Below, in pieces: positions 3,344-47,761 of a DNA stretch of 64,000 nucleotides; within the stretch, counting starts at the first letter, position 1; each line of letters begins with the position of its first letter. The position numbers and the translations under genes were made by a program. The notes under the pieces are model-generated. The model had not been told where the DNA came from. It worked only from the letters and a program-made list of their open reading frames with translations, and made no database searches. The stretch covers positions 45,854-109,853 of the forward strand of contig CAZCZB010000001.1 in assembly GCA_964502995.1 (NCBI GenBank), written 5' to 3'. The DNA comes from an uncultured Dehalococcoidia bacterium. GTDB taxonomy: Bacteria > Chloroflexota > Dehalococcoidia > Lucifugimonadales > UBA3495.

Positions 3344-3371
3344 GCGGGCTTGCGGTGTAGGTGATGCCCGC
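3344..3371 (-). promoter_or_regulatory. 5' leader hairpin GCGGGC-(..CCUACAC..)-GCCCGC directly upstream of SD of parB-like gene
   Basis: Minus strand: GCGGGCAUCACCUACACCGCAAGCCCGC AAAAAAGGAGAG..AUG(3325). Same architecture as the 3' products of the hammerhead elements. Confidence 0.55.
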
Positions 3372-3384
3372 TTTTCGTAGTCGT

Positions 3385-3413
3385 ATTCTGGCAGAATAAC
3401 TATCTATTGTAAA
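3385..3413 (-). promoter_or_regulatory. candidate promoter TTTACA-N17-CAGAAT (TGC extended -10)
   Basis: Minus strand: CCCTTTACAATAGATAGTTATTCTGCCAGAATACG. Shares the cccTTTAC -35 and TGC-NAGAAT layout with the promoters at 22467-22495, 10135-10162 and 18145-18172. Confidence 0.4.
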
Positions 3414-3552
3414 GGGTTTTAGTCGGGATATTCCGAAATTCCTACGGGAGATTTCCCAGAACGACGGTTTCAGTAATCCGGGGCAAGGTAGCCAAACCTG
3501 ACCGCTCGCAATACAATGGCGGCAGCCGGATTTGCTCTCCTTTTCCGGCGCC

Positions 3553-3586
3553 GTTGCAGCCAGGGAGTGTAGGCCCGGGCTGCAAC
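3553..3586 (-). other. 9-bp hairpin with CCUACAC in the loop, just after the radC-like stop
   Basis: GUUGCAGCC-cgggCCUACACucccu-GGCUGCAAC on the minus strand, followed by AAAAGGAGAG but no obvious ORF. Confidence 0.4.
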
Positions 3587-3602
3587 CCTTCGTCCAGCCA
3601 AA

Positions 3603-4118
3603 TCAGAACCCCAGACCCTTTTCCTTGTGGCTGACGAAGCGGCCGGCGCCGATGACGACGTGATCCAGCACCTCGATGTCCAGCAGCTTGCCGGCCTGCA
3701 ACAGGTCACGGGTCACCGCAACGTCCTCAGGGCTGGGTGTCGGATCACCTGACGGGTGATTGTGGGCGATAATGATGCTGGGAGCGTTTTCAATCACGGC
3801 CGTGCGGAAGACTTCTGCCGGCCGGACTGCCGATGAGTTAACAGTGCCCTGATAGATGACCCGCTGGCCTACCACCTTGTTGCGGGTGTTCAGCAGCAGC
3901 ACCCGGAGCTGTTCCTGGGTCAAGGACTGCATCTCCGGCGCCAGCAGGTTGTAGATGTCCTGGGGACAGTTGATGGTGGTCAGTCCGTCCGGCCCGTCCG
4001 TTGGGGCCGACACCTGGTAGCGCAGGGACAGCTCGCGGAGCAGGTTCATGTTGTCGCGCAAGGTGTCCAACAGCGTCGCTTCGATTGGCGTAGCGTCCGT
4101 TGTGGTGGTCGACGTCAT
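3603..4118 (-). CDS. RadC-like JAB/MPN domain protein
   Basis: 171 aa. IIIAHNHPSGDPTPSPEDVAVTRDL carries the HxHPSG...S..D JAMM motif typical of RadC. Confidence 0.85.
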   Translation of the reverse strand: MTSTTTTDATPIEATLLDTLRDNMNLLRELSLRYQVSAPTDGPDGLTTINCPQDIYNLLAPEMQSLTQEQLRVLLLNTRNKVVGQRVIYQGTVNSSAVRPAEVFRTAVIENAPSIIIAHNHPSGDPTPSPEDVAVTRDLLQAGKLLDIEVLDHVVIGAGRFVSHKEKGLGF

Positions 4119-4146
4119 AGCGGCTCTCCTTTGGTGAATGCGGCCG

Positions 4147-4163
4147 GCGCGGTGTAGGCGCGC
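4147..4163 (-). promoter_or_regulatory. leader hairpin GCGCG-CCUACAC-CGCGC upstream of radC-like SD
   Basis: Perfect 5-bp stem with a 7-nt loop CCUACAC on the minus strand, 34 nt upstream of ATG 4118. AAAGGAGAG SD follows. Confidence 0.5.
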
Positions 4164-4226
4164 GAGTCAGCCGCTGCTACTGGTCTTGCGGGTTGGGCGG
4201 TGCCGAGGTTCGCCTTGCCGATGGGA

Positions 4227-4442
4227 CTAAACGACCCGCTGGAGCCGGCGCTCCATGAGCGCCCAGAACTTCGACTCGTCAGCAGCTTTGTTGGCCTCCG
4301 ACCACGCGGCGGACGTGTTCACGCTCTTGGCTCGATCAGTGAGATTTTTCTCTGTGTTGAACGCCAACGTCTTGCTCCGCACAACGTCCGCGACCGTCAT
4401 GTTGTCCTCGATCCAACGAATCATGTTGCTGATAGTGGCCAT
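4227..4442 (-). CDS. small hypothetical protein (71 aa)
   Basis: Starts at internal ATG 4442 (MATISNMIRWIEDN...), preceded by GCAAGGAGAUC from the hammerhead-a leader. The longer track ORF (to 4640) would run through the ribozyme. Confidence 0.55.
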   Translation of the reverse strand: MATISNMIRWIEDNMTVADVVRSKTLAFNTEKNLTDRAKSVNTSAAWSEANKAADESKFWALMERRLQRVV

Positions 4443-4475
4443 CGTGTGATCTCCTTGCGGGGCAGGTGTAGGAAT

Positions 4476-4528
4476 CCCGCGACCCGCCGGCTGGCGGGTT
4501 TCGCCGTCGCTACGGCTCATCAGGCGGG
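4476..4528 (-). ncRNA. hammerhead ribozyme, type I (copy a)
   Basis: Minus strand: CCCGC CUGAUGA GCCGU-AGCG-ACGGC GAA A-CCCGCC-AGCC-GGCGGG-U C^GCGGG. Full catalytic core. Predicted cleavage between 4481 and 4480. Confidence 0.85.
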
Positions 4529-7686: not shown

Positions 7687-9174
7687 CTACGCCGCCTGTT
7701 GAGCGGCGTTGAGTTCGTGGAGCACCAGCGCCGCCACGACGCCCGGCTCAACGCTCTGCTCTTCCCGACGCTTGGAACCTTTGGCAGGCGGCATCCTGAT
7801 CCTCATGTGCCGCATGTGGACGTAGTCGTCGGCCTTCAGGTGGGCCAGCGCCGTGGCCAAGTAGGTCAGCGTCGCCATCGCCACGTGCAGCGACACCTTC
7901 TGGATGTTCAGGTAGCGGTGGGTGTCCAGCAGCCTGCTGTGCTTGGCACTGCTGAAGTGCCGCTCGATGATCGGCCGCTTCTTGTACTCGGCCTTCCATT
8001 CGTCCGAACAGCGGGGCAGCAGGCCCACAATCCGCAACAGCCGACCCTCGGTCTTCTCGTAGTGGGCGTAATCGCAATGCCTCGTAAACTGCACGCTGTC
8101 CTTCAGGTGGCAACCCTCGGCGGGACACCCGAACAGGTGCCCCTGCTCTGGATCAGTCTCGACGTACTCCATGGACTTACCGCCCACGCAGGTCGGCCGG
8201 CCATCAGCGTCATAAATGCCGTCGTACCGCCGCTCGCCGGTTTCCTTGTCCTTCTCGGGCAGCCGGACCGCGATCACTGGCATCATGCCCACGTCGATGA
8301 CGTGCCGGATGTTGTCCAATTTGTCGTAGCCCTTGTCGCCCAGGAAGTAGTGCGGCCTCAGTTCGGGGTACAGGACCAAGCAGTCATCAAGGTCCTCGAC
8401 CATCACCGCCACGTCGCTGGCGTTGGCTGGACGGGTCCTGGCGAACATCGGCAATCCGTAGTTGGAGTCTGCGACGACATCAATCGAGTAGCCGAAGTAC
8501 AGCTCGTCCTTGCTGTCCTTCTGGCCCGACTCCGCGCTGTCGCCTTTGGGCTTGGACTTGCTCTTCTTGGAATTGCGGCCTTTGCGTCCCTTGCTGGAGC
8601 GGGCATTCTTGGCGGTGCGGTGTCCCCACTTGGCGTCCGTATCCTTGGACGGTATCTCGTCACCCGTCTTCCGGCTCTTGCGACTTGGCCGTGCCCACGC
8701 CTCAACGTCGGTGCTGTCGATGACCAGCGAGTGTCCCAGCGGCGGCTTATCGGCAGGGACGATGCCGGCTTCGCGCAGCCGTTCGATCTCGCCTCGGCAT
8801 TCAAGGAACACTTCGGCGATGATGGGATCGAAGGTGTCTCGATGCGCGGCCAGTTTCTTCTTGAATCGGCTGTAGGCCCCTTCACTGGGGGCGCATTCGA
8901 GGTCGCAGATGCCCAGCAGGCGGTCGTCGCTGCCCAAGCGGTTCAGGAAGCCGTTGGCGTAGCGCTCATTGAGCGCGAACTGCATCACGAAAGCAGCCAG
9001 CATGGGCAAAGCTGTGTAGCCTGGGTTTCCGCCGCGCTCGTGGGGCGCGTCCAAGGTCTCCGCCAGAGGGCCGGCACGGGATACTACACCCCCAACCACG
9101 CCTTCGAGGAAGCCGTAGCCGCTCTTGGGGGGTTGTTTAGGTAATGGTGTATGCTTAAAATAGCAGTCGCCCAC
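7687..9174 (-). CDS. IS4/IS5-superfamily DDE transposase (DUF772-like N-terminus)
   Basis: 495 aa. GNPGYTALPMLAAFVMQFALNERYANGFL resembles the DUF772 N-terminus. FLGDKGYD and YKKRPIIERHFSSAKH give the Y-2-R-3-E-6-K signature. I could not define the IS ends by eye. Confidence 0.85.
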   Translation of the reverse strand: MGDCYFKHTPLPKQPPKSGYGFLEGVVGGVVSRAGPLAETLDAPHERGGNPGYTALPMLAAFVMQFALNERYANGFLNRLGSDDRLLGICDLECAPSEGAYSRFKKKLAAHRDTFDPIIAEVFLECRGEIERLREAGIVPADKPPLGHSLVIDSTDVEAWARPSRKSRKTGDEIPSKDTDAKWGHRTAKNARSSKGRKGRNSKKSKSKPKGDSAESGQKDSKDELYFGYSIDVVADSNYGLPMFARTRPANASDVAVMVEDLDDCLVLYPELRPHYFLGDKGYDKLDNIRHVIDVGMMPVIAVRLPEKDKETGERRYDGIYDADGRPTCVGGKSMEYVETDPEQGHLFGCPAEGCHLKDSVQFTRHCDYAHYEKTEGRLLRIVGLLPRCSDEWKAEYKKRPIIERHFSSAKHSRLLDTHRYLNIQKVSLHVAMATLTYLATALAHLKADDYVHMRHMRIRMPPAKGSKRREEQSVEPGVVAALVLHELNAAQQAA

Positions 9175-9683: not shown

Positions 9684-9803
9684 TCAGCTCGGGGGCGGAG
9701 TAGCGAAATTTCCTCTGAACGGGTTGAACTTCTTGACCAGCCTGGTGGCCTCGTGGCCGCAGCGGTGAAGCACGACCGTGCTGGCTTGGCTTTTGGTGGT
9801 CAT
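9684..9803 (-). CDS. short ORF (39 codons) behind hammerhead-b leader; possibly the 5' remnant of a disrupted gene
   Basis: My translation: MTTKSQASTVVLHRCGHEATRLVKKFNPFRGNFATPPPS*. Good SD (GCAAGGAGAGAGACC AUG). Followed by ~500 nt with no convincing ORF. Confidence 0.3.
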   Translation of the reverse strand: MTTKSQASTVVLHRCGHEATRLVKKFNPFRGNFATPPPS

Positions 9804-9835
9804 GGTCTCTCTCCTTGCAGGGTTGGTGTAGGTAT

Positions 9836-9891
9836 CCCGCGACGGCCCGTAGGTTGGGGCCGTTTCGCCGTCTCACGGCTCATCAGGCAGG
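9836..9891 (-). ncRNA. hammerhead ribozyme, type I (copy b)
   Basis: CCUGC CUGAUGA GCCGU-GAG-ACGGC GAA A-CGGCCC-CAACCUAC-GGGCCG-U C^GCGGG. Predicted cleavage between 9841 and 9840. Confidence 0.85.
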
Positions 9892-10092
9892 CTGGTTCTC
9901 GGAGTTTGCCAAGCAGTCTTCGCAGTTCACCATGTAGCCTGCCGAGCTGTAGACCACGTAGTGCTCTCCCGCCATAGTGGACTGGCCCATGGCATAGTGG
10001 CGGGTCGTGACCTCGGCCAAACAGGCGGGCCGGGAGCTACCAACGCACTCTGTCAAATGGAAGGTAGCGCGCTTCTCGAACTTCTCAAACAT
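9883..10092 (-). CDS. small Cys-containing hypothetical protein
   Basis: 69 aa ending ...SENQPA, with its UGA being core nucleotides U4-G5-A6 of hammerhead b. SD AAGGAGAGAGACC before ATG 10092. Confidence 0.55.
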   Translation of the reverse strand: MFEKFEKRATFHLTECVGSSRPACLAEVTTRHYAMGQSTMAGEHYVVYSSAGYMVNCEDCLANSENQPA

Positions 10093-10134
10093 GGTCTCTC
10101 TCCTTGCCTTGTGAACTAGCGTTCTGATACGATA

Positions 10135-10162
10135 ACGATAGCAGACCGACCAGTGGTGTAAA
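10135..10162 (-). promoter_or_regulatory. candidate promoter TTTACA-N16-TATCGT (TGC extended -10)
   Basis: Minus strand: CCCCTTTACACCACTGGTCGGTCTGCTATCGT. Nearly identical copy at 18145-18172. Confidence 0.4.
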
Positions 10163-10367
10163 GGGGTTTGCGGAAAATGCGAACCGTGGCATTGGGACGC
10201 CGGCCAGCGAGCGCATCGGACGCCCTGGGCTGCTACGGCGGTAAGACCGTCTGCAAAAAAACCAGTTCAGGATAGGTAGGAAGCGGGGGTTCTGTAACAT
10301 TTGCGGGGTAGTTCCCTGTTCTAAAAACTCGTGCTGGGATTTGGCGGTTTTAGAACGCTACCCCCCC

Positions 10368-11106: not shown

Positions 11107-11330
11107 CAGAACCGAAGCGGGACTTCCATAAATCCTGCGTGTGCGGCCTTGTGGCAAAAATCGCCAGTCCGAACCGTTCGAGAAAAACCGCTCCAGGATG
11201 GTAAAGGGGCGATGCGGCGAAACCCTCGCGTGTGCAGCCTTGTGGCCTGTGTGCGCCGCCTTGCGAAATTGCCTTAGAGCGGCGCCGAACGGAGCTTGTT
11301 GGGCCGGAGCGTGGGGGACGGCGAGACAAC

Positions 11331-12324: not shown

Positions 12325-13602
12325 CTATTCCAAACCTGGCCTAATCTGCGTTATCTGACCTAATCTCTCGATTGGCGATCCACAGGCAGGCACAGTGTTG
12401 GTTGACGCTTCACCGACCACCGCCGGCGTAGCCGGACTTACACAGTCTCCACGTCCTGACACCGGGAAGCTCGAACCCGGCCATTGTTCCAAATTCAGCG
12501 CGGCGTTCGCGTCACGCTCGACCAGCGCACCACATCCGCCGCAATACCACTGCCGATCAGAGAGCGTCATCTCTGCGTTGTGCCATCCGCAGTGAGCGCA
12601 CAGCCTGGACGAAGGGAACCATCGATCCGCCTTCTCAAAGTGGGCGCCGTACCAGGCGCACTTGTACTCCAGTTTGACCAGGAACCCGGCCATCCCAGCA
12701 TCGGCGATGGCCCGCGCCAGTCGCCGGTTCCGCATCATGCCAGCCACGTTCAGCGTCTCCACCACCACCCGGCCCGCCGACTTGGCTATCGCCGTCGTCG
12801 CCTTGTGGTGGTTGTCATTCCGAACGTTGACTATCCTGGCGTGCAGCCGCCGTCGTTTCGCGTACAGACACTCGCGCCGGTTGGAGCGATTGCTCTTGCC
12901 GTGGACGTTCCGGCTGCGGGCGATGGCTTTGTCAAGCCGGCGCAACTGCTTGAGGCCGCTGGCCAGCGCCTTTGGATTGGCCACCCTGGTACCGTCCGAG
13001 CACTCGGCCATCGTACCAACGCCGACATCGACACCGGTGGTCCGTCCATCCTTGACCGGCGGCGGTTGTTCACCGTCCTCGATGCAGAACGCGGCGAACC
13101 ACGTCCCCGCCGTGCGATTGATCGTTACCTCGCGGATCGAGCCGGGAAAGCGCAGAGCCTCCACCATGTCCACCCGGCCTATCTTCGGGAGGACCACCGC
13201 CTTGCCGTCCACGCGCACGGTGTCGGGACCGTTGTCGGCTCGGAATCCTTGTTCGTGCCGCCGCCGCTTGAAACGCGGGAACCCAACGCGCCGTCCTGGG
13301 CGCTGGCCAGCCTTCACCGCCTTGCGGTACGCCCCCCAACCCGCCGCGGCCTGGCCGAAGTCGATGATGGCGTATTTCGCAGCGTTCTGAGACAGCGGCG
13401 CGGACCATGGGGCGATCATCCCCTTGACCTTGTTCCAACGCGGCCGCAACGTGCGCTCGGACAGCCACTCGCCAACGTCCAGTCCAGCCTTGAACTCGCC
13501 CACCGCCCAGTTGTAGGCGAACCTGGCATAGCCGGCGTGCTGAGCCAGGACGGACTCCTGCTCCCGCGTAGGCTTCAACGCTATCCGGTGTGCTCGCTTC
13601 AT
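12325..13602 (-). CDS. tnpB: TnpB (OrfB) RNA-guided-endonuclease-type transposon protein
   Basis: 425 aa. N-terminal MKRAHRIALKPTREQESVLAQHAGYARFAYNWAV and a C-terminal zinc ribbon CAHCGWHN...WYCGGCGALVERDANAALNL. Confidence 0.9.
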   Translation of the reverse strand: MKRAHRIALKPTREQESVLAQHAGYARFAYNWAVGEFKAGLDVGEWLSERTLRPRWNKVKGMIAPWSAPLSQNAAKYAIIDFGQAAAGWGAYRKAVKAGQRPGRRVGFPRFKRRRHEQGFRADNGPDTVRVDGKAVVLPKIGRVDMVEALRFPGSIREVTINRTAGTWFAAFCIEDGEQPPPVKDGRTTGVDVGVGTMAECSDGTRVANPKALASGLKQLRRLDKAIARSRNVHGKSNRSNRRECLYAKRRRLHARIVNVRNDNHHKATTAIAKSAGRVVVETLNVAGMMRNRRLARAIADAGMAGFLVKLEYKCAWYGAHFEKADRWFPSSRLCAHCGWHNAEMTLSDRQWYCGGCGALVERDANAALNLEQWPGSSFPVSGRGDCVSPATPAVVGEASTNTVPACGSPIERLGQITQIRPGLE

Positions 13603-13605: not shown

Positions 13606-14262
13606 CTATCCGATCAGCGACAGTTGCCGCGCCGTCTCCACCACAGTCTGATCTCCATCGTTGGCCAGCGCGTCCAGCAGTTTCTTGCTCTTGTGGCTGC
13701 GACTGCCGTACAACTTCGCCGAAAACACGGTGATGATCTCCAGCACGTCCTGCGCCAACTCTTCCTCAAAACTCGGCTGCTCGCCTTGATGGATGATGAC
13801 GATCTCGATACCTTGCAGCTCGCACAACGTGAACACCAGTTCAGCGCCGAACCGCAACAGCCGGTCCTTGTGCGTGATTACCAGCCGCTCCGTCCGCCGG
13901 CGCAGGATCAACTCCAGCAACTCCTGGAGTCCTTTCTTGCGGTAGTTCATACCGCTGCCGAGGTCGCGGATCACCTGGGTGCGCCATCCTTTCGTCGCGC
14001 AGTAGGCCTCTAGCGCGGCGTGCTGGCGATCCAGATCCGCCTTCTGGTCCGGGCTGGATACTCGCGAATAGCAAATGGTCAGCGGTTCCGCCGGGTCGCT
14101 CCGGTAGCCGAGCAGGTCCGCGACGGCGTAGTAGCGAGTGCCGCCCTGCGTTTTGCGCGTCGGCATCAATTCGCCGGTGGACTCCCACTTCCGCAACTGT
14201 CCCGGTGTGGTCCCGAGCATTCTCGCCGCTTCGCCTATCTTGACCAGTCTGGCATCGTTCAT
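13606..14262 (-). CDS. tnpA: IS607-type serine recombinase transposase
   Basis: 218 aa. MerR-like HTH (VKIGEAARMLGTTPGQLRKWESTGEL) followed by the resolvase catalytic motif ICYSRVSSPDQKADLDRQ. Confidence 0.9.
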   Translation of the reverse strand: MNDARLVKIGEAARMLGTTPGQLRKWESTGELMPTRKTQGGTRYYAVADLLGYRSDPAEPLTICYSRVSSPDQKADLDRQHAALEAYCATKGWRTQVIRDLGSGMNYRKKGLQELLELILRRRTERLVITHKDRLLRFGAELVFTLCELQGIEIVIIHQGEQPSFEEELAQDVLEIITVFSAKLYGSRSHKSKKLLDALANDGDQTVVETARQLSLIG

Positions 14263-16180: not shown

Positions 16181-16259
16181 GTCCTTGTTCCTCTGACCTG
16201 CCTTGTTCAACGCCGGGCGGTCAACCCCGGTCGGACGCCCCGTGTCCGGGGCGTTTCGG

Positions 16260-16433
16260 CTATCCCTCGGCAACCGTTACTTCGATGGCCTTGGGAGCGC
16301 CGCCGGGGAACGCGGACTTGCTGATGTACACCGTGCTGACGGCGGCGTTTTCGTCCACTGCGGCGTACCGGTAGGTGCCCTTGGTCTCCTTGTCCTGTTC
16401 CATTCGAATGCTGATTGGTGTAATCTTTGCCAT
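16260..16433 (-). CDS. small hypothetical protein (57 aa)
   Basis: Below the track cutoff. My translation: MAKITPISIRMEQDKETKGTYRYAAVDENAAVSTVYISKSAFPGGAPKAIEVTVAEG*. RBS AAGGAGG before ATG 16433. Confidence 0.5.
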   Translation of the reverse strand: MAKITPISIRMEQDKETKGTYRYAAVDENAAVSTVYISKSAFPGGAPKAIEVTVAEG

Positions 16434-16490: not shown

Positions 16491-17756
16491 CTACCACTGG
16501 ACGTACATGGGCATTACCACGTACTTGAAGGTTTCATCGTCTGGGAGGGTCCAAAGGCCGGGGCTGCTGGGATTGTTTGCCGACAGGACCAACGGCCCCT
16601 CAACGACCTTGAGCAATTCGGACACGTACTTCGAGTTGAAGGCGATGCGGCCGAGATTTTCGTCCTCACCATCCAGTCCCATGACTTCGGCGCACTGGGC
16701 CTCCCGCTTGGCGTAGCCGACATCCTCGGTCCTGGCCGACACCCGGATGATTCCCGCCATCGCCGGCCCGTCTTCAGTGCGTTCTTCCTCGGGGATGGCC
16801 GTCTGCTCCGTCCAGAAGCGGATGATGTTGCTACCGTCCACCGCGTACACTGCGGCGCTTTCCACGGCGCCCTTCAAGACTTTGGCGTCGGTCTGCACCT
16901 GCCACGTCGGGCTGTCGGGAATCAGGGGCTCATAGTTGGGAAATTCGCTGGCGATCATCTGGGTCAGCACCAGATAGCTGCCGACCTCGAACTGGGCCTT
17001 GCTGTTGTCACGGTCGATGTTCAACCGCACCGGGTCTTCGGTGGACTTGAGCAGTTTCTCCATCGCCGTGAAGGTGCGGGCCGGAATCACCACCTGTAGC
17101 GGATCCTCCATCGGCTCGGCCTCCGGTGCAATCTCCCCCGTCTGGCAGGCCGCCTCAATCAGGTTGCCCCGCTGGCAGGCCAACCGGAAACCGTCGGCTG
17201 CGGCCAGCTCGTAACCGTTGTCGTCGAGCTTGAGGCAAATGCCAGTCAACACCGGCCTGGACTCGTCCTTCGCCGCCGCCAGTTGCACCCGCCGGATGTT
17301 CCCGGCCAGCTCGTCAGGGTCGAAGAGAACCGCCACGGGTTGGTTGAACTCCGTCTCTATCGTCGGCGGGAAGTCCGCAACAGCAACGCCGTTGAACGTG
17401 GCCTCGGTGTCGTTGACGCCAGACCGGATGGTCAGAACCAGGTTGCTGCCGCCGATGCCCGGCTCGGCTTCCTCATCGACGGGGCCGACCTCAAGGTCCA
17501 GACGGTCGGAGGCGAGGGTGCGGACGAAATCGTTCAGCATCTTGTGGCTGACGCAGATCCCGCCCTCATCTTCCACCATCGCTCCGACCCAGGTGCTGAA
17601 CCCCTTCTCAAGGTCAGTGGTATCCACCCGAAGCATTCCACGGTCGGTGGTCAGTCTCACCATCTTGCAGACGGGGATGCCATCCCCGCTGGCGGTGAAC
17701 GGCTTGGCCGCCGCCAGCGCCCTGGTGAAGTTTTCCTGTAACAACGAGACTCTCAT
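16491..17756 (-). CDS. dnaN: DNA polymerase III beta sliding clamp
   Basis: 421 aa. The start (LLQENFTRALAAAKPF...VRLTTDRGMLRVDTTDLE), the three-domain length and the ending ...FKYVVMPMYV fit DnaN. Confidence 0.8.
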   Translation of the reverse strand: MRVSLLQENFTRALAAAKPFTASGDGIPVCKMVRLTTDRGMLRVDTTDLEKGFSTWVGAMVEDEGGICVSHKMLNDFVRTLASDRLDLEVGPVDEEAEPGIGGSNLVLTIRSGVNDTEATFNGVAVADFPPTIETEFNQPVAVLFDPDELAGNIRRVQLAAAKDESRPVLTGICLKLDDNGYELAAADGFRLACQRGNLIEAACQTGEIAPEAEPMEDPLQVVIPARTFTAMEKLLKSTEDPVRLNIDRDNSKAQFEVGSYLVLTQMIASEFPNYEPLIPDSPTWQVQTDAKVLKGAVESAAVYAVDGSNIIRFWTEQTAIPEEERTEDGPAMAGIIRVSARTEDVGYAKREAQCAEVMGLDGEDENLGRIAFNSKYVSELLKVVEGPLVLSANNPSSPGLWTLPDDETFKYVVMPMYVQW

Positions 17757-17786
17757 GGTCTTCTCCTTTGCGGGTAGTGTAGGTAT

Positions 17787-17842
17787 CCCGCGACGGCCCG
17801 GAGGCCGGGCCGTTTCGCCGTCGCTACGGCTCGTCAGGCGAG
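17787..17842 (-). ncRNA. hammerhead ribozyme, type I (copy c)
   Basis: CUCGC CUGACGA GCCGU-AGCG-ACGGC GAA A-CGGCCCGG-CCU-CCGGGCCG-U C^GCGGG. Predicted cleavage between 17792 and 17791. Leader and SD feed dnaN. Confidence 0.85.
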
Positions 17843-17850
17843 CTGGGCGT

Positions 17851-18102
17851 CTAGTTCTCGGTCGTCTTCAAGGTGCCGTCGGCGTTGAGTTCCTCGGCAA
17901 AAACGTGGCCAGCGCTGAAAGACTCCCAAGTCCGTGGAACTGTCATCGGGGGAAGTGGCACGTCGTTATGCAGGGTTGCGGGGCAGTAGCGGCAGATCAT
18001 GTCAATGGGGTCGCCGTTGCGGTCGCGGGGAGAATCGGGCGCGGCGGTGAAGGAATGCCGACCCCTTTCCTCAAAGTATTCGCAGATGATGGTGGCGTCC
18101 AT
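17851..18102 (-). CDS. small hypothetical protein (83 aa)
   Basis: Start at ATG 18102 (MDATIICEYFEERG; RBS GGCAAGGAG). The UAG stop lies just before hammerhead c. Confidence 0.55.
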   Translation of the reverse strand: MDATIICEYFEERGRHSFTAAPDSPRDRNGDPIDMICRYCPATLHNDVPLPPMTVPRTWESFSAGHVFAEELNADGTLKTTEN

Positions 18103-18144
18103 GTTCCTACTCCTTGCCTTGTGAACTAGCGTTCTGATACGATA

Positions 18145-18172
18145 ACGATAGCAGGCCGACCGGTGGTGTAAA
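18145..18172 (-). promoter_or_regulatory. candidate promoter TTTACA-N16-TATCGT (copy of 10135-10162)
   Basis: Region 18111-18180 is ~97% identical to 10101-10170 (2 mismatches by eye). Confidence 0.4.
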
Positions 18173-18226
18173 GGGGTTTGGCGGGGAGTTGCGGAAATTC
18201 CTGAAAATGCGAACCTTGGCAATAAG

Positions 18227-18397
18227 TCACGGACATTGCAGCCGGTTAACGGGCAGGCGTGGATCGTAGGGGCGACGGCATTGGCAACACATCAGGGAGC
18301 CGTCGGGCATTCGGTAACAGGCCAGGCCGTTCCAAGGGTGATTGGCGCGACAGGCGCACAGCAGGGCAATGCTGGCGGTCTCGTCGGTGATCGTCAT
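18227..18397 (-). CDS. small Cys-rich protein (56 aa)
   Basis: Below the track cutoff. My translation: MTITDETASIALLCACRANHPWNGLACYRMPDGSLMCCQCRRPYDPRLPVNRLQCP*. RBS UAGGAGAG before ATG 18397. Confidence 0.4.
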   Translation of the reverse strand: MTITDETASIALLCACRANHPWNGLACYRMPDGSLMCCQCRRPYDPRLPVNRLQCP

Positions 18398-18432
18398 CTG
18401 CGTGCTCTCCTAAATCGGTAGGTCGGAATCCA

Positions 18433-18840: not shown

Positions 18841-18852
18841 GGGTTTCCTGGT

Positions 18853-19209: not shown

Positions 19210-19239
19210 GGTTCTCTCCTTGCGGGTTGGTGTAGGGAT

Positions 19240-19298
19240 CCCGCGACCCGCCGGTCCTGACCGGCAGGTTTCGCTGTCGATACAGCTCATCAGGCGGA
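19240..19298 (-). ncRNA. hammerhead ribozyme, type I (copy d)
   Basis: UCCGC CUGAUGA GCUGU-AUCG-ACAGC GAA A-CCUGCCGG-UCAGGA-CCGGCGGG-U C^GCGGG. Stem II is compensatory relative to copies a-c. Predicted cleavage between 19245 and 19244. Confidence 0.85.
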
Positions 19299-19391
19299 CT
19301 GAATTTGGATCGCTCCGTCCCGTATCTGCTCCTGAATGACGGACTTGGTGCGCTCGAAGTCGTCCTGGGCCGCTTCCAACGAGTCGTGAGA

Positions 19392-19583: not shown

Positions 19584-19595
19584 GCTGGTCCTCCG

Positions 19596-20258
19596 TCAGA
19601 ACTCCGCGTGTTCGTTGCCCTGGGCGTCGACGTAGGTCGGGAACTCCGGCAGCTCGCCTCGGGCTTCCTCAGCCCTGAAGGCTGCCAGCGCCTTGTCAGC
19701 AACTTCCCGGATTACCGGGTACTTTTCGAGCAACTTCTTCGTCCCGTTTGCACTCTCGTTCCACCAGATCCCGACCTCGGGATGGTTGTCGTAGAACATG
19801 CAGACAGCGGACAGCAATTCCTGCATCATCGGAACCGTCATGACGTCCATTTCTACCGAGTCGCCGTCAGCGGGGTGCAAATCCTCGTACCTCTCTTCGA
19901 CGGTTTGGATCGCCGCGACGAAGATCCGTGCCAGGTCCGTCCCGAGGATGGCCTGGGACTGGTCGTTCCATTGCAGCAGGGTCGGCCGGCGATCAGCCAT
20001 GGCCAACGTCTCGAATTCGGCCTCAGTGACTTCGACGAGCACCTGGTAACGCCTTTCACCGTCCGGCACAGAAACCCAAAGGGATGCTGCGCGGGGAACC
20101 GTAACGGACCGGTCGAGGACGGTATGCTCGCCTCCCGTGCCGATAGTCCAGTCTTCCCAGACATCCTGGGGCACACGGCGCAGTTCAACTTCGTCCAGGC
20201 TATCGACCGCGGCAAAGTCGCCGGTCGGCAACACCGCTATCAACTGATACTGACCCAT
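19596..20258 (-). CDS. hypothetical protein with C-terminal ELPEFPTYV..GNEHAEF tail
   Basis: 220 aa. SD AAGGAGAGAAUA from the hammerhead-e leader. Confidence 0.65.
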   Translation of the reverse strand: MGQYQLIAVLPTGDFAAVDSLDEVELRRVPQDVWEDWTIGTGGEHTVLDRSVTVPRAASLWVSVPDGERRYQVLVEVTEAEFETLAMADRRPTLLQWNDQSQAILGTDLARIFVAAIQTVEERYEDLHPADGDSVEMDVMTVPMMQELLSAVCMFYDNHPEVGIWWNESANGTKKLLEKYPVIREVADKALAAFRAEEARGELPEFPTYVDAQGNEHAEF

Positions 20259-20298
20259 TATTCTCTCCTTGCTGCGGGCAGGTGATTTTGTAGGCTAT

Positions 20299-20357
20299 CC
20301 CGCGATCCGCCTGACGGCGGATTTCGGCCCGGCGCCACCGGGCCATCGTCAGGCAGG
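20299..20357 (-). ncRNA. hammerhead ribozyme, type I (copy e; extra U after A9)
   Basis: CCUGC CUGACGA U GGCCCGG-UGGCG-CCGGGCC GAA A-UCCGCC-GUCA-GGCGGA-U C^GCGGG. Predicted cleavage between 20304 and 20303. Confidence 0.75.
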
Positions 20358-21212: not shown

Positions 21213-21530
21213 CTAGCGGCCCTTGCGCAATCGCCCCGACAGTCCCGCCCGTTTCAAGGCCGCATTGACCCTTCGGCGGTTGAGGGAGAACATCTGGCGG
21301 GAGTTGCCGAACGTCCAGTCCACGGCATCGCCCATTTCCACGAAGAAATTGTGGGCCTTCCTGCCACAGTCCGCGCAGATTGGTCCGCCCTCGCCGTCGC
21401 AATGCACGGCCAGCTGATAGGCATAGTCTCCGGTCAGAATCTCGGCCGGGTGCCGGGCTTCTCCGCAGGTGTTGCAAGTCGCGGACGAATCCACTTTGCG
21501 CAAGCCTTCCAGAATTTCGGCAACGGTCAT
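21213..21530 (-). CDS. small Cys-containing hypothetical protein
   Basis: 105 aa, directly behind the hammerhead-f leader. Confidence 0.55.
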   Translation of the reverse strand: MTVAEILEGLRKVDSSATCNTCGEARHPAEILTGDYAYQLAVHCDGEGGPICADCGRKAHNFFVEMGDAVDWTFGNSRQMFSLNRRRVNAALKRAGLSGRLRKGR

Positions 21531-21563
21531 GCTGTCTCTCCCAGCGGGTAGTGAGTTTGGCTT

Positions 21564-21624
21564 CCCGCGATCCCCTGGGCCGGGGATTTCGGGCCGGGAG
21601 CCACCCGGCCCATCGTCAGGCAGG
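21564..21624 (-). ncRNA. hammerhead ribozyme, type I (copy f; extra U after A9)
   Basis: CCUGC CUGACGA U GGGCCGGG-UGGCU-CCCGGCCC GAA A-UCCCC-GGCCCA-GGGGA-U C^GCGGG. Predicted cleavage between 21569 and 21568. Confidence 0.75.
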
Positions 21625-35941: not shown

Positions 35942-35966
35942 TTTGGGTCTCCGATAGCGTGTAGGT

Positions 35967-39739: not shown

Positions 39740-40130
39740 AACGGTCAATCCATCGCCATTGCCACCAGGCTTCGTTGATGACCAACTCGGCCCAGAGGTC
39801 GTTTTTGTATCCATTCCACATTTGCAAGTCGCGGATCGCGGGGTCGTCGCTGTACTTCGTCAACATCCAATCACGGCCACAAAAGCGGGAGCGTGCGTCC
39901 TCAGCCATTTCCCGATCCAACCGTTGCTGCCAACGGAGAAATCGGGGGCTGGCTTCGTGGCCGGCTATCCAATCGCCCTCGGCGACGGACGCGCCGCACT
40001 TACGGCACCGCCAGCGGGGAGCCGTGCGATACTCGGTCATGTAGCGCTCGCGGTGTCCATTGCCGCACCGCGGTTTGTCAGGCGACGGCGGACCGAGCCA
40101 TGCGGGGCTAACACAGATGGCGGATGTCAT
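39732..40130 (-). CDS. hypothetical protein
   Basis: 132-aa ORF with start/stop overlaps on both sides. Confidence 0.5.
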   Translation of the reverse strand: MTSAICVSPAWLGPPSPDKPRCGNGHRERYMTEYRTAPRWRCRKCGASVAEGDWIAGHEASPRFLRWQQRLDREMAEDARSRFCGRDWMLTKYSDDPAIRDLQMWNGYKNDLWAELVINEAWWQWRWIDRYA

Positions 40131-40564
40131 GCTGCCTCCAGCCCTCGATTCACGGCGGCCATCGTTTCACTGTCCGGGAGCCACAACCCCAGCGCGCCTT
40201 TCGCCTCCACCGGTTCCGGCAATACCCGCAGGTTGCCCAGTTGCCATGCCCACCGGCCCGGGCTGTAATCCCCATAGCGGCGTTCATTGGGCGGGAGGTC
40301 CGCCGGCAACATCAACCCATCGGTGCGGTAGCACTCCATGAGATCGACGGCGCACAGGATCGCGCTTTGGGGCAGTTCCTCATCCAGGATGCCCTCATTG
40401 AGCAACTCCGCAGTGAAGGCGCGGTCGATGCCCTTACCGGCGTGTATCAGCAACGGCCCGCGATAGGTGGGTGCCCAACTCCGCGTCTCAAACCGTTTCA
40501 AGTGCAGGGCGATGAGCGACGCCCACGGTTGCCAAAGAGTGATAGCGCGAGGCGCGTCAGTCAT
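40127..40564 (-). CDS. ASCH-domain protein
   Basis: 145 aa. AITLWQPWASLIALHLKRFETRSW matches the ASCH N-terminal pattern. Confidence 0.75.
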   Translation of the reverse strand: MTDAPRAITLWQPWASLIALHLKRFETRSWAPTYRGPLLIHAGKGIDRAFTAELLNEGILDEELPQSAILCAVDLMECYRTDGLMLPADLPPNERRYGDYSPGRWAWQLGNLRVLPEPVEAKGALGLWLPDSETMAAVNRGLEAA

Positions 40565-43686: not shown

Positions 43687-43727
43687 TCCTCCAACGGCTC
43701 GAATTCAGGGGAATCCCGCCTGTTGGT

Positions 43728-45494: not shown

Positions 45495-46015
45495 CAGAAC
45501 TCTCCGTGCTCCTGCCCGTCCCAGCCCACATAGATTGGGAACTCCGGCAACTCGACAGGTTCGGGTTCGCGGTGCATCTTCATGCGCCCGAACACATCGC
45601 CCGGATTGCACCGATCGCAGGCGGTGAGCCAATGGACCGCTTCAAAAAGTATCCCGGTGGGCACGCCGCAGAAATCGCAACGCGCCGCATCGATTTGGTG
45701 AATGAACGTATCGGACGGCTCACGCTCTTCCAATTCGCGGCCGTCAAAAAATGGGTTGTACCTACCGTCGCTATACCGCCAATGCCCTGCTTGCCACCAC
45801 GCCTGGTGACTGCGCCGTTCGGGTCGGGGCTGCGACGGGCAGGCGGGGTAGCAGACAAGGCGCCAGTTGTGGCCGATGATGCCGCGGTCCTCGGTTCCCC
45901 ATTTGGAGCGTCCCCCCTTGCCGCAGAGATCGCACAGGGCAGCGTCCCAAAAGAACCGGAATGGTGCCAACGGTGCCAGCTGCCCGAGGTAGTATGACGA
46001 TTCAACGATGTTCAT
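45494..46015 (-). CDS. Cys-rich hypothetical protein with C-terminal ELPEFPIYV..GQEHGEF tail
   Basis: Start at ATG 46015 (RBS GGAGG). The tail is shared with the 19596..20258 product. Confidence 0.55.
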   Translation of the reverse strand: MNIVESSYYLGQLAPLAPFRFFWDAALCDLCGKGGRSKWGTEDRGIIGHNWRLVCYPACPSQPRPERRSHQAWWQAGHWRYSDGRYNPFFDGRELEEREPSDTFIHQIDAARCDFCGVPTGILFEAVHWLTACDRCNPGDVFGRMKMHREPEPVELPEFPIYVGWDGQEHGEF

Positions 46016-46017
46016 GG

Positions 46018-46347
46018 TCAGTTGCCTCCGTTGTCGCGAAATCCGGGGAGTCCGAACATATCGGCCTGGCGAGTGCGGACCTCGTGAGCGTCCGGGTCCT
46101 CGGCCGGCAGGATGGCGAAGTCGCCGCCCAGCCAGTCCATGAAGCACTCGTCGCACATGGCGACCGTGGTGTCGCCCTCGCATGCATGGAACGGCATTTC
46201 GGTTTCGTGTTCGCAGCGCCAGCAGGTGGTCATAGGCATCTGTGGGAGTTCCGGCTGTTCACCTTCCTGTTCGTCGATGAGTCCATCGACGCGCCTGACG
46301 AATTGATCGACGCTTTCCGCGTCGACGGTAATGGTTGAATCGGGCAT
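46018..46347 (-). CDS. acidic zinc-finger protein
   Basis: 109 aa. CWRCEHE...CDEC. Confidence 0.55.
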   Translation of the reverse strand: MPDSTITVDAESVDQFVRRVDGLIDEQEGEQPELPQMPMTTCWRCEHETEMPFHACEGDTTVAMCDECFMDWLGGDFAILPAEDPDAHEVRTRQADMFGLPGFRDNGGN

Positions 46348-46489
46348 TTTCTATCTACTCCTCGGATGAATGGGACGCACCACGGTGACGATCCCGTCGC
46401 AGACATTGCACGGCTTTCCCGTCGGGCAAACGGCCGGCTGGCCATTCTCGAACTGGGGATGTTTGGGCTTGCGGGCCATGCTGGCCGAC

Positions 46490-46942
46490 CTATCGCCGGG
46501 GCGGCAGGAGCGCAGAGACGGTGGCTTCGACACGCTGGTCGGTGTTGTCAAACACAGCCGCGTCGTCAATCGGCCCGTAGCGTTCTTGGCTGCGCGCGGC
46601 TTCTTGTGCCGCCACGACGCGCTCCTGGTTGGCTTTCATTTCCTTGGCGCGGGGCAACAGTGTCTCCACCAAATGTTCGACCCACACGCCGGGGCGGAAA
46701 ATCTGAGGATGGCCCCAACTGCTGTAGCCCGCAGCAAACACCGTGGTCCACTGCTCGTTGAGATTGACCAAAACGTCGACGTTCGACACGTAAGTGTCGA
46801 GCGTGACGCGGATCTTCTCGTCCTCGTAGATGTCGTACCCACCGTGCTTCTTGGTCCTGTGCTTGGTCTTGAGGTACCGGGCCACCACTGCTGCCGCGGA
46901 CGCGACCATGATGGCCTGGTCTTTATCTGGCTGTGTCATCAC
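46490..46942 (-). CDS. hypothetical protein
   Basis: 150-aa ORF. Confidence 0.55.
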   Translation of the reverse strand: MMTQPDKDQAIMVASAAAVVARYLKTKHRTKKHGGYDIYEDEKIRVTLDTYVSNVDVLVNLNEQWTTVFAAGYSSWGHPQIFRPGVWVEHLVETLLPRAKEMKANQERVVAAQEAARSQERYGPIDDAAVFDNTDQRVEATVSALLPPRR

Positions 46943-46984
46943 TGGATCGTCCGTTTGTTCGGGTTCATCGGGACGGACAACCGA

Positions 46985-47452
46985 CTACGTCTTCACGTCG
47001 ACGCGCTCTTCACGGTCGGTGACCTTGTAGATGCCGGGGTGCTCCTTGGGAGGAAACGCCTTGCGGACTGCCGTGGTATCGATCTTGCGCGGGCCGTACA
47101 GCGAGGGGTATTCGTCCTCCGGGTACTGGTGCCGGAACTCCGGTTCGTCGATGTTGGTCGTGGTGCCGGGAGCTTTGTATTCGAACACCACGCTGGCGTC
47201 GGTCAGGATCGCGCTGGCGCCGACACCGCCGCGAACCACGTCCAGGGCGTCGTTCTTGCCGCTGGTCTCAAGGTGGTCGGCCAGCAGGCGCAATTCCACG
47301 GCCAGGTGAATGCGTTCGCCGGGCGAGTAGGTGCAGCCCGGATCGGTCAGCTCGTCGGCCAAGCGCTCCAGACCGTCTCCGCTCAGCAGCGTCGACAGGG
47401 AGCGCAGGCGCTCGATGGTGAGGGGAGATTGCGGGACAGATTTTTTAGCCAT
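46985..47452 (-). CDS. hypothetical protein
   Basis: 155-aa ORF. Confidence 0.55.
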   Translation of the reverse strand: MAKKSVPQSPLTIERLRSLSTLLSGDGLERLADELTDPGCTYSPGERIHLAVELRLLADHLETSGKNDALDVVRGGVGASAILTDASVVFEYKAPGTTTNIDEPEFRHQYPEDEYPSLYGPRKIDTTAVRKAFPPKEHPGIYKVTDREERVDVKT

Positions 47453-47717
47453 GGGGCCACTCCTTCGGTCGTGGTTGGGCCGGGTCGTCGTTTATCGAAA
47501 AGAACACGACCTTGCCGTCGTCTCTGGCCAGCAGGCTGCATCCGGTCTCCAGCGCCTCGTCCAGCAGCACGCAGATTTCGTCGGCGGTGGTTTCGACGTA
47601 CCACTCCCAGTCGGACGGGGCGTGCATGGGGACCTGCACTTGGCGATCCTTGGCCAGCGTTCTAACCTGGGCTTTATCGGTGACCACCTCGGTCACTGTT
47701 GGAATAGAAATTGGCAT
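47445..47717 (-). CDS. hypothetical protein
   Basis: 90-aa ORF. SD AAAGGAGAGGAA. CCUACAC lies 28 nt upstream of the start. Confidence 0.5.
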   Translation of the reverse strand: MPISIPTVTEVVTDKAQVRTLAKDRQVQVPMHAPSDWEWYVETTADEICVLLDEALETGCSLLARDDGKVVFFSINDDPAQPRPKEWPHG

Positions 47718-47761
47718 AATTTCCTCTCCTTTATGCCTTCGTGCGTGTAGGACGTGATCCG

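Follow-up and report, generated by a model that had tools for sequence, protein, structure and literature searches.

A hairpin leader with a conserved CCUACAC loop, joined to hammerhead ribozymes at six gene junctions of a probable phage-like element in Chloroflexota

Introduction

Arrays of hammerhead ribozymes that flank genes have been described in prophages and anti-restriction regions, where their proposed role is to cut long polycistronic transcripts into gene-length mRNAs (Perreault et al. 2011, PMC3088659); according to reviews, the biological role of bacterial hammerhead and twister ribozymes is still largely elusive (PMC6765202). Here we analyze a stretch of 64,000 nucleotides (nt) from an uncultured Dehalococcoidia bacterium (assembly GCA_964502995.1, contig CAZCZB010000001.1, positions 45,854 to 109,853 of the forward strand), referred to below as the window. 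Positions 1-48600 of the window belong to an element that is probably an integrated, phage-like one in a Chloroflexota host. Several of its genes are preceded by a hairpin with the loop CCUACAC, and at six junctions the 5' arm of such a leader can also serve as one strand of a hammerhead ribozyme.

These junctions resemble the known arrays in that several self-cleaving ribozymes, with intact cores and variable stems II and III, lie between short accessory genes of an integrated element, and in that twisters are found in like contexts: a distant relative of the element carries nine Twister-P5 ribozymes at the same junctions. The published description of the arrays (PMC3088659), however, covers the ribozymes and not the stretch from the cleavage site to the start codon. 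Here, in contrast, stem I is an invariant helix of 5 bp whose 3' strand is common to a downstream hairpin that also exists ribozyme-free, and the Rfam hammerhead models score below threshold on the copies.

The engineered RiboJ joins the sTRSV hammerhead to a 23-nt hairpin located upstream of a ribosome-binding site; the terminal hairpin is believed to make the mRNA more stable (PMC6206723). By analogy, RiboJ appears to be the closest functional counterpart of the leader: the order of ribozyme, hairpin and ribosome-binding site is the same, and at six of six junctions cleavage would leave a fixed hairpin leader at the 5' end whatever lay upstream. The hairpin of RiboJ is, however, separate from the ribozyme helices, whereas here a strand is shared with stem I and the two folds exclude each other. 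RiboJ also has no conserved loop comparable to the heptamer, and the predicted exposure of the ribosome-binding site here is not consistently better after cleavage.

As a lineage-specific motif before the starts of non-structural phage genes, the leader seems to find its closest natural analogue in the SAS/ESAS of Cluster K mycobacteriophages, repeats for which a host or phage factor is suspected (Pope et al. 2011, PMC3203893). Both are asymmetric repeats in a single orientation, often with an upstream inverted repeat, that stand immediately before the starts of some non-structural genes of different families. The 13-bp SAS consensus GGGATAGGAGCCC lies 3-7 bp upstream of starts and includes the Shine-Dalgarno sequence itself, whereas the leaders analyzed here read CCCGC-N(0-6)-AAGGAGAG, a likeness of layout only. 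The inverted repeats of ESAS lack compensation of the RNA type while the stems described here compensate, and no ribozyme accompanies SAS.

Hairpins read through their loops are a further point of reference. Short hairpins with a fixed loop and a free stem sequence serve as operators in lambda (N-boxB), in MS2 and PP7 (coat protein) and beside the Shine-Dalgarno site of E. coli thrS. The leaders share this design, and like the thrS and MS2 operators, whose binding controls translation, they sit at the ribosome-binding site. They differ in that their loops are unusually long (7 to 16 nt), in that an element has about nine copies, not one or two, and in that the cognate protein is known in those systems, whereas here there is only a candidate loop site.

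A stem at or near nucleotide 1, as in the ompA 5' untranslated region, protects against 5'-end-dependent RNases, and RNase J1 acts on the 5'-OH product of the glmS ribozyme. That product is degraded after cleavage (PMC6765202). The ribozyme products of the element likewise carry a stem from nucleotide 1 on a 5'-OH RNA that would otherwise be a degradation target; unlike the case of known stabilizers, protection would have to be deduced here. In the promoter-fed copies the stem does not begin right at the 5' end, and a stabilizer has no need of a conserved loop. Hammerheads of viroids and satellite RNAs, in turn, are switched off by alternative folding. There, as is predicted here, a ribozyme strand is held in a more stable alternative helix and the catalytic fold is transient, with the difference that those RNAs are replicating circles, whereas here an mRNA leader is concerned and the alternative helix abuts the ribosome-binding site. 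Ribozyme-processed operon junctions and phage leader repeats are already known; what this locus adds is a strand common to both folds and an orphan candidate recognition loop.

Results

Six hammerhead junctions share a strand with their leaders

Six hammerheads lie on the minus strand of the element, each with its predicted cleavage site (^) directly 5' of GCGGG. The positions of the ribozymes and leaders are as follows, the leaders running from the first nucleotide of the 3' product to the start codon and being scored with R1, a leader covariance model described below.

4481..4528, minus strand: hammerhead a, type I (CCCGC / CUGAUGA / stem II GCCGU-AGCG-ACGGC / GAAA / stem III / GUC^)
4440..4480, minus strand: leader a, GCGGG-AUU-CCUACAC-CUGC-CCCGC-AAGGAGA-N7-AUG; R1 36.3 bits
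9841..9891, minus strand: hammerhead b, type I
9801..9840, minus strand: leader b, GCGGG-AUA-CCUACAC-CAAC-CCUGC-AAGGAGAG-N5-AUG; R1 48 bits
17792..17842, minus strand: hammerhead c, type I, core CUGACGA
17754..17791, minus strand: leader c, before the sliding-clamp (DnaN-like) gene, GCGGG-AUA-CCUACAC-UA-CCCGC-AAAGGAGA-N5-AUG; R1 40.5 bits
19245..19298, minus strand: hammerhead d, type I; best Rfam match HH9, 20.5 bits, below the gathering score
19207..19244, minus strand: leader d, GCGGG-AUC-CCUACAC-CAA-CCCGC-AAGGAGAG-N4-AUG; R1 42.9 bits
20304..20357, minus strand: hammerhead e, type I; an extra U follows A9, and stem II has 7 bp and the loop UGGCG
20256..20303, minus strand: leader e, variant loop, GCGGG-AUAG-CCUACAA-AAUCACCUG-CCCGC-AGC-AAGGAGAG-N4-AUG; R1 28.9 bits
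21569..21624, minus strand: hammerhead f, type I, with an extra U after A9 and loop II UGGCU
21528..21568, minus strand: leader f, variant loop, GCGGG-AAGCCAAACUCACUA-CCCGC-UGGGAGAG-N5-AUG, in which AGCCA is complementary to loop II UGGCU; R1 34.6 bits

All six copies contain the core CUGA(U/C)GA ... GAAA ... (G/A)UC^, and on the basis of a manual check of this core we assign them to type I. The Rfam hammerhead models gave no match to these copies at the gathering score, the best being HH9 on copy d with relaxed filters (20.5 bits against 52), likely because stem I has only 5 bp and stem III is long. Stems II and III (4-10 bp) differ in sequence among the copies, with pairing kept, while stem I is open and consists of 5 bp formed by CCYGC and GCGGG. 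Nine more distinct copies in related elements likewise have intact cores and a predicted cleavage site directly 5' of GCGGG, which in relatives can also follow GUA^.

The original prediction, made from the sequence of the window, described a common order of parts at these junctions, and all six agree with it. In these copies the 3' product begins with GCGGG, followed by 12-20 unpaired nt, CCCGC or CCUGC, a Shine-Dalgarno sequence 0-3 nt further on and a start codon 4-7 nt after that. The Shine-Dalgarno sequence is typically AAGGAGAG, of the (A)AGGAGA form, and UGGGAGAG in copy f. The loop was expected to contain AU(N)CCUACAC in every copy except f (AAGCCAAACUCAC); this holds for copies a-d, where it reads AUN-CCUACAC, while copy e has CCUACAA, with one mismatch. 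GCGGG can pair either upstream, as a strand of stem I, or downstream, as the 5' arm of the leader hairpin, as predicted and as both the individual sequences and their comparison indicate.

Some observations concern individual junctions. The gene behind leader a codes for a 71-amino-acid (aa) protein. The gene behind hammerhead b (9684-9803, minus strand) may be truncated, its product being 39 aa long in the window and 90 aa in the related element L278. A type II hammerhead-like element at 16192-16261 (minus strand) scores 33.5 bits, short of the Rfam gathering score (37); its GAAA, stem III and GUC are good, but the core deviates, with UUGAACA in place of CUGAUGA. It lies just upstream of a gene start at 16180, at a junction like those of the six type I copies, and is possibly a dead or variant ribozyme.

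All leaders contain GCGGG ... CCCGC-AA (for example, window 4457-4480, minus strand), as does the acceptor stem of the initiator tRNA from E. coli at positions 2-6 and 67-73. The likeness is probably a coincidence because the AA is part of the Shine-Dalgarno site. Mimicry of the initiator tRNA acceptor stem or of an RNase P substrate was rejected: the 3' context is a Shine-Dalgarno site and there is no CCA. We also rejected mimicry of an anticodon arm, which was considered for the likeness of CCUACAC to the UAC loop of tRNA-Val and for the 5-bp stem and 7-nt loop of two ribozyme-free hairpins; most loops have 11-16 nt, and position 33 is C.

The same loop occurs in hairpins with no ribozyme

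Hairpins with the same loop, at 3344-3371, 3553-3586 and 4147-4163, lie exactly where they had been placed in the original prediction, as does the promoter at 3385-3413, which matches TTTACA-17-CAGAAT.

3385..3413, minus strand: sigma-70-like promoter feeding the 3344-3371 leader, TTTACA-17-CAGAAT with an extended -10 TG
3323..3371, minus strand: leader of the ParB-like gene, hairpin 3344-3371 GCGGGC-AUCA-CCUACAC-CGCAA-GCCCGC, then AAAAAAGGAGAG-N6-AUG; R1 37.6 bits
3553..3586, minus strand: long hairpin just after the RadC stop codon, GUUGCAGCC-C-GGG, loop CCUACACU, CCC-U-GGCUGCAAC
3525..3549, minus strand: companion hairpin, GCCGGA, loop AAAGGAGAGCAAA, UCCGGC, with a Shine-Dalgarno-like sequence in the loop and no open reading frame after it
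4116..4174, minus strand: RadC leader, GCGGCUG-ACUC-GCGCG, loop CCUACAC, CGCGC-CGGCCGC, then N10-AAAGGAGAG-N6-AUG

The hairpin of the ParB-like gene leader (-10.3 kcal/mol, z -2.55) begins about 7-10 nt after the inferred transcription start. The hairpin after the RadC gene has an interrupted 13-bp stem and is predicted to be far more stable (-20.6 kcal/mol, z -5.4). The RadC leader combines the inner hairpin 4147-4163 with an outer stem at 4140-4174 (-18.7 kcal/mol, z -2.0), and upstream of it a hammerhead remnant, CCCGC-AAGACCAG, is found at 4180-4192.

Together, 3525-3549 and 3553-3586 make up a two-hairpin element behind RadC that is kept in four lineages. The companion hairpin could be a decoy or a stabilizer.

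The heptamer is enriched before gene starts, in one orientation

Given that the element genes are on the minus strand, plus-strand GTGTAGG corresponds to CCUACAC in the RNA. An exhaustive count of both strands of the window yielded 13 copies of GTGTAGG, 12 of them on the plus strand and one on the minus strand, so the heptamer is far from equally common on the two. Shuffled sequences contained 3.42 +/- 1.68 copies, and none of 100 shuffles reached 13. Within the element, eight of the ten sense copies lie no more than 60 nt upstream of a start codon, a zone that makes up 8.3% of the sequence (binomial p = 8e-8). An unbiased count of 6-mers in the 45 nt upstream of Shine-Dalgarno sites gave CCTACA as the top 6-mer, present in 8 of 52 leaders against 0.8 expected.

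The nine heptamer positions originally listed are all correct, and all nine copies are minus-sense. A copy on the other strand, at 53018 within the integrase gene, had been missed, as had three more copies in coding sequences, at 22384 (20 nt past the start of its coding sequence), 57117 and 57123. Two of the nine copies originally listed have no predicted structure.

35959..35965, minus strand: bare CCUACAC, 17 nt before the GTG start codon of a C5 methyltransferase gene; no hairpin, z 0.19
47745..47751, minus strand: bare CCUACAC, 27 nt before the start codon at 47717; stable hairpin absent, z 0.12

We regard both as probable chance copies, because they have no structure and because, together with the copies in coding sequences, their number equals the chance expectation.

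The tandem pair at 57117 and 57123 (57117-57129, plus strand; GTGTAGGTGTAGG) lies in a CoA-transferase family III gene of the host flank, where the minus-strand codons encode PYTYT. It is unrelated to the leaders and was counted as chance.

The loop is conserved in related elements while stems and ribozymes change

Pattern scans identified the relatives L061/L241 (IMG/VR) and the more distant L289, and homologues of RadC and of the sliding clamp led to L278/L279, L292, L293, L294, L297, L295/L299 and L296. Contigs identical with the element or related to it are found in sponge metagenomes and among the viral contigs of IMG/VR. The window and four relatives together provide about 88 kb of sense strand, in which there are 26 copies of CCUACAC against 2.9 expected and none of its complement against 2.4 expected. 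The covariance model R1 was built from 20 leaders of six or more lineages and run against 473 kb of related and unrelated loci. It recovered its training set plus new copies in L289, L297 and L281, and its matches are confined to this clade: the twister-bearing relative, a locus of a conjugative element and 11 unrelated ParB loci gave nothing with E below 0.1. The motif is therefore conserved among related elements. GCGGG is invariant in 20 of 20 leaders, and both of its partner strands change only from C to U, with wobble pairing, or lose one pair, which is the pattern expected of one strand common to two alternative helices.

The clearest evidence that the loop is maintained for its own sake comes from sites where the ribozyme has decayed or is absent. 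At the RadC junction, L241, L292 and L278 have an intact hammerhead followed by GCGGGAUA and the loop CCUACAC. Only a mutated remnant of the hammerhead is left in the window, with CCCGC-AAGACCAG, and in L297, with CCCGC-CUGACCAG (CCCGCCUGACCAG); in both, the stem of the leader has been rebuilt from GCGGGAUA/UAUCCCCGC to GCGCG/CGCGC with CCUACAC unchanged. The leader is also kept behind degenerate ribozymes at L278 site 2044 and L289 site 292, and behind a hammerhead with a C3-to-U core mutation at L278 site 3973. In the hairpin after the RadC gene, four pairs have changed on both sides among four lineages around an invariant CCUACAC loop. The promoter-fed leader has orthologues in L241/L292, L278 and L297, all with the heptamer, while the flanks of the heptamer differ in each lineage (AUCA/CGCAA, GCA/CACUA, G/ACA and AUCA/CACAA); in L297 the promoter of the ParB-like leader is gone and the heptamer is still there. 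The post-RadC hairpin and the RadC leader thus combine an invariant loop with co-varying stems, as loop-specific operator hairpins do. Since stems co-vary and ribozymes decay while the loop stays fixed, the loop appears to be selected independently of the ribozyme, and on this comparative evidence we conclude that it is under purifying selection. Nor does the hairpin look like a by-product of the ribozyme, because it is also kept where a promoter or a decayed ribozyme precedes it and downstream of a stop codon.

These changes bear directly on the view that the loop has no function of its own, the cassette having been spread or homogenized by recombination, the hairpin acting as a spacer that keeps a G-poor unpaired sequence before the Shine-Dalgarno site, and CCUACAC having been kept by descent or gene conversion. 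In keeping with that view, identical leaders precede different genes (L293 6596 and L278 2036), stem II is identical in copies a and c, all loop variants are G-poor and A/C-rich, and the loop of the sliding-clamp junction is exchangeable among relatives. In the ribozyme-free hairpins, however, stem sequence, stem length and loop flanks have all changed, while the heptamer is kept at 12 of 12 orthologous sites in four lineages, and the distant lineage L289 retains CUACAC. We consider a loop without function unlikely.

The leader that precedes different genes reads GCGGGACACCUACACCAACACCCG in both L293 (6596-6638) and L278 (2036-2078), which suggests that ribozyme/leader cassettes serve as recombination joints for gene shuffling.

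It is a good deal less likely that the tail AUN-CCUACAC is a ribozyme accessory, that is, a tertiary element that contacts loop II and speeds up cleavage, with the ribozyme-free copies as decaying leftovers. Pseudoknots involving the stem I-stem II region are common in hammerheads and required for fast cleavage (PMC3088659). Loop II UGGCU of f-type copies is perfectly complementary to the tail AGCCA over 5 bp (window copy f and L292 7425), and at L292 9907 UGGU can pair with ACCA over 4 bp. In leaders with CCUACAC, however, loop II has 3-5 nt (AGCG, GAG, AUCG, AGAAA), of which no more than two bases are complementary to the tail; cognate pairs barely exceed permuted ones (2.75 vs 2.47, p = 0.05), a difference driven by the f-type copies; and orthologues with different loops II have the same tail (L292 9907 and L293 9915). 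Moreover, the heptamer is invariant in three types of ribozyme-free hairpin in four lineages with compensating stems, which points to selection and not decay. A loop II pseudoknot was therefore rejected as the reason for CCUACAC, as no co-varying complementarity of four or more bases was found in leaders with this heptamer, and was retained for the AGCCA variant.

The hammerheads of types e and f have an extra U after A9 and a stem II of 7-8 bp. In f (21569-21624 with 21560-21566, minus strand) and L292 7425-7490, AGCCA lies 2-3 bases beyond stem I. The pairing of UGGCU with AGCCA is likely a tertiary pseudoknot and could explain the variant leader of the f-type copies.

The loop might instead be a base-pairing target, the heptamer acting as a seed for a GUGUAG(G) RNA (a small RNA of host or element, or a segment of rRNA) that tunes translation of the regulon. 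Seven exposed invariant bases beside a ribosome-binding site are the usual layout of a small-RNA target, and the lack of GUGUAGG in the 88 kb of sense strand (0 vs 2.4 expected) would fit avoidance of self-pairing, although the deficit is not significant. The same lack means that the sense strand of the available element parts offers no GUGUAGG partner. In addition, the loop variants (CCUACAA, CCAAAC...) are not wobble-compatible with one partner, and the universal GUGUAG of 16S rRNA, in helix 23, is paired in the mature subunit. We think such a target improbable, about as much so as the accessory role. Direct pairing with 16S rRNA (CUACAC with GUGUAG of helix 23, or CCUAC with GUAGG of helix 45) was rejected on unfavorable geometry and because both segments are paired in the mature subunit. 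A MazF-type cleavage site, with the core UACA, was rejected since it is absent from the CCAAAC variants.

Least probable of all, in our view, is a site read at the DNA level, with CCTACAC as an asymmetric heptamer bound by a protein of the element, such as the ParB-like one (compare the heptamer boxes of P1 ParB), or as a recombination hotspot. Four of the seven structured sites do lie within 1.2 kb around the ParB-like gene, the element encodes this protein and several helix-turn-helix (HTH) proteins, and cassettes have been shuffled. Compensatory changes in the arms, by contrast, make sense only for a folded single strand, the orientation follows transcription (26 sense vs 0 antisense), the place between the ribozyme cleavage site and the Shine-Dalgarno sequence is fixed, and the arms lie at variable distances of 7 to 20 nt. 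GCGGG-N-CCCGC as the operator of a dimeric DNA-binding protein was rejected for its variable spacing (12 to 20 nt), and a mobile palindrome of the REP/MITE kind because such elements show the reverse of the pattern seen here, where loops are conserved and stems differ.

Outside the sub-clade marked by the loop, ribozymes abut ribosome-binding sites without it. L295/L299 have a single hammerhead, at the sliding-clamp junction, and no CCUACAC leaders. L296 (ENA ERZ23495064 scaffold_5534), with a sliding clamp 40% identical, has neither hammerheads nor CCUACAC; its nine Twister-P5 ribozymes score above the Rfam gathering threshold at the same junctions (for example 1703-1760, 3770-3827, 9851-9908 and 11200-11257, plus strand). 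Most stand directly before a GGAGAG-type Shine-Dalgarno sequence, and those at 1703-1760 and 9851-9908 are followed by GAGAGAGG. The twisters leave their own structured 3' portion before the Shine-Dalgarno sequence, not a CCUACAC hairpin. These patterns suggest that the design of a ribozyme abutting the ribosome-binding site is older than the CCUACAC loop and that the loop marks one sub-clade.

A second hammerhead-like element of L289 (10380-10500, minus strand) has U15.1 and A16.1 swapped (GAAU ... GAA^GCGGG). Its leader loop is CCACUACAC, which suggests CUACAC as the conserved core of the motif.

Other searches added little. Among the matches listed for GCGGGATNCCTACAC in genome and viral contig collections, only L061 is real, the others being chance; the 19 matches of GTCGCGGGATNCCTACAC in metagenome contigs are all chance, mostly 'SRDPYT' codons of HD-domain genes. 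A sliding-clamp protein search of IMG/VR gave no match, BLAST against phage and plasmid records returned nothing relevant, and the literature, searched in full text for the heptamer, yielded nothing but unrelated papers on miRNAs and primers. When the whole window was compared with the curated RNA families of Rfam 15, the leaders matched none of them at E <= 1 or at the gathering score, nor at E <= 10 in 17700-21700.

Predicted folding before and after cleavage

The predicted 3' products of the six ribozymes fold into a hairpin from nucleotide 1 (-6.5 to -9.8 kcal/mol), in which G1 pairs with the last C of the 3' arm. The stem thus begins within the first 1-2 nt, as in stabilizer hairpins, for all six products and not for the promoter-fed copy. 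In the minimum-energy fold of the uncleaved RNA, GCGGG pairs with the downstream arm at junctions b, c, d and f, by 2-5 kcal/mol over the stem-I fold; among the five junctions compared, only a prefers the ribozyme fold. The leader hairpin and the active ribozyme are accordingly predicted to be mutually exclusive folds, with the hairpin favored on paper. Because the hairpin is preferred in the full-length RNA as well, it may restrain cleavage and not only follow it. Exposure of the Shine-Dalgarno sequence by cleavage was set aside as an explanation, partition-function predictions showing no consistent effect.

This preference invites the hypothesis that the hammerhead is regulated and has the leader hairpin as its expression platform. 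Binding of a factor at the loop would stabilize the hairpin and a ribosome at the Shine-Dalgarno sequence would melt it, deciding whether GCGGG is available for stem I and coupling cleavage to the level of the factor or to translation of the downstream gene. Besides the energies of junctions b, c, d and f, the kinetics would suit such a gate: the competing arm lies 12-20 nt downstream and is transcribed well before a typical hammerhead cleaves. Furthermore, the 3' arm ends 0-6 nt upstream of the Shine-Dalgarno sequence, within the usual 30S footprint. On the other hand, differences of 2-5 kcal/mol for 5-bp helices are within the error of the model, nearest-neighbor energies leave out tertiary stabilization of the hammerhead and co-transcriptional order, and the same loop is present where no ribozyme needs regulating. 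We therefore hold both the gate and the coupling that would follow from it to be possible but doubtful.

A modular leader with a putative recognition loop

The leader is not explained by the ribozyme alone and, as far as sequence comparison reaches, is conserved in a small clade. The explanation that we favor, with even but no higher confidence, is that it is a modular 5' untranslated leader of the integrated phage-like element whose loop is a site for a trans-acting factor. The unit would consist of the hairpin with the loop CCUACAC (core CUACAC), a strong Shine-Dalgarno sequence (AAGGAGAG) within about 0-25 nt and the start codon. At the six junctions, a type I hammerhead directly upstream would form its 5-bp stem I with GCGGG, the 5' arm of the hairpin, as 3' strand. 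As the sequences of the junctions read, the mRNA after cleavage begins at the first base of the hairpin, and the two partners of GCGGG, CCYGC upstream and CCCGC downstream, are mutually exclusive.

We hypothesize that after cleavage GCGGG swaps to the downstream arm, which would free the upstream RNA with the ribozyme and prevent re-ligation. The result would be a blunt, structured 5'-OH end that should resist RNases in need of a free 5' end. Before cleavage the hairpin would compete with stem I and may thereby set or gate the rate of cleavage. The loop would be the putative recognition site of one trans-acting factor, more likely a protein than an RNA, that could act jointly, through translation or stability, on about nine accessory or establishment genes, including those for the ParB-like protein, RadC, the sliding clamp and small zinc-ribbon proteins. 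Among the roles raised in the original prediction, a binding site is the one we favor for the loop, as CCUACAC is kept without a ribozyme; a binding factor did not emerge from the Pfam scans.

Several observations weigh against this explanation. At the sliding-clamp junction the relatives differ in the loop: L278 has CCUACAC, as the window does, L292/L293 have CCAAAUCC and L295/L299 have CCAAACCUC, so the heptamer is dispensable for that gene. Recombination among paralogous cassettes may have homogenized the copies and inflated conservation within a genome. The short GCGGG/CCCGC hairpins are weak on their own (5 bp, loops of 12-16 nt, -4.8 to -8.1 kcal/mol, z -1.2 to -2.6), and conservation, not energy, is the ground for accepting them as real. 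After cleavage, the predicted probability that the Shine-Dalgarno sequence is unpaired goes up in a, b and e, goes down in c and f and is unchanged in d. The promoter-fed hairpin starts about 7-10 nt into the RNA and is not flush with its 5' end, which indicates that end protection is not the whole story. Finally, Pfam scans of 59 window proteins (50 of the element and 9 of the integrase region and host flank) revealed no recognized RNA-binding domain. The sole hint of RNA binding is an ASCH match below the cut-off at 40127-40564, many small proteins belong to no family, and the window contains only part of the element.

A bolder version of the modular leader, which we rate as unlikely, would make the CCUACAC hairpin the operator of a regulon and, at the six junctions, the off-switch of the hammerhead, with a loop-bound factor or the adjacent ribosome picking the partner of GCGGG. 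Downstream pairing would then mean an inactive ribozyme and retention of the upstream RNA, and upstream pairing would mean cleavage and a structure-capped mRNA. If true, these would be the first natural hammerheads that respond to a protein or to translation, and bacterial hammerheads would have a defined job.

In the modular leader, the ribozyme appears to be wired to a conserved leader such that cleavage would make a blunt hairpin just before the ribosome-binding site. As the leader outlives the ribozyme, it looks like the primary functional unit, with the ribozyme as one of several makers of its 5' end; at the ParB-like gene, a promoter would make that end in the ribozyme's stead. The junctions thereby suggest what hammerheads are for in bacteria. 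The seven invariant bases of the loop suggest a factor that could be captured, and the importance of the system would be high if the hairpin gates cleavage or if such a partner exists. As a natural counterpart of the engineered RiboJ insulator, the leader may also supply compact, self-contained expression parts for Chloroflexota, a phylum with few genetic tools.

The element around the leaders

Between about 48.5 kb and position 1, the genes of the element lie on the minus strand, and its right end carries two genes on the plus strand.

48619-49290, plus strand: CI-like repressor
52369-53553, plus strand: tyrosine integrase

Beyond about 53.6 kb the flank contains metabolic genes; for one of them, the closest named relatives are 73-76% identical and all from metagenome-assembled genomes of Chloroflexota/Dehalococcoidia. 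The element encodes ParB-like, RadC and DnaN-like sliding-clamp proteins, C5 and N6/N4 DNA methyltransferases, DUF3987 and ThyX, further DUF5131, DUF1643, LPD29 and DUF3560 proteins, and a Gp3-like recombination directionality factor, and it carries insertion sequences. No phage structural genes were found inside the 64-kb window.

The insertion sequences in the ribozyme-rich region (7687-9174, 12325-13602 and 13606-14262, minus strand) comprise a DDE transposase and, as an IS607-like pair, TnpB with a serine recombinase of the MerR-HTH type. A promoter-plus-leader segment is duplicated at 10100-10173 and 18110-18184 (minus strand), with 72 of 75 aligned positions identical, before two different small genes; it reads CCCCTTTACACCAC...GCTATCGTTATCG...CAAGGCAAGGAG. 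The -35 region CCCTTTAC is common to several promoters of the element.

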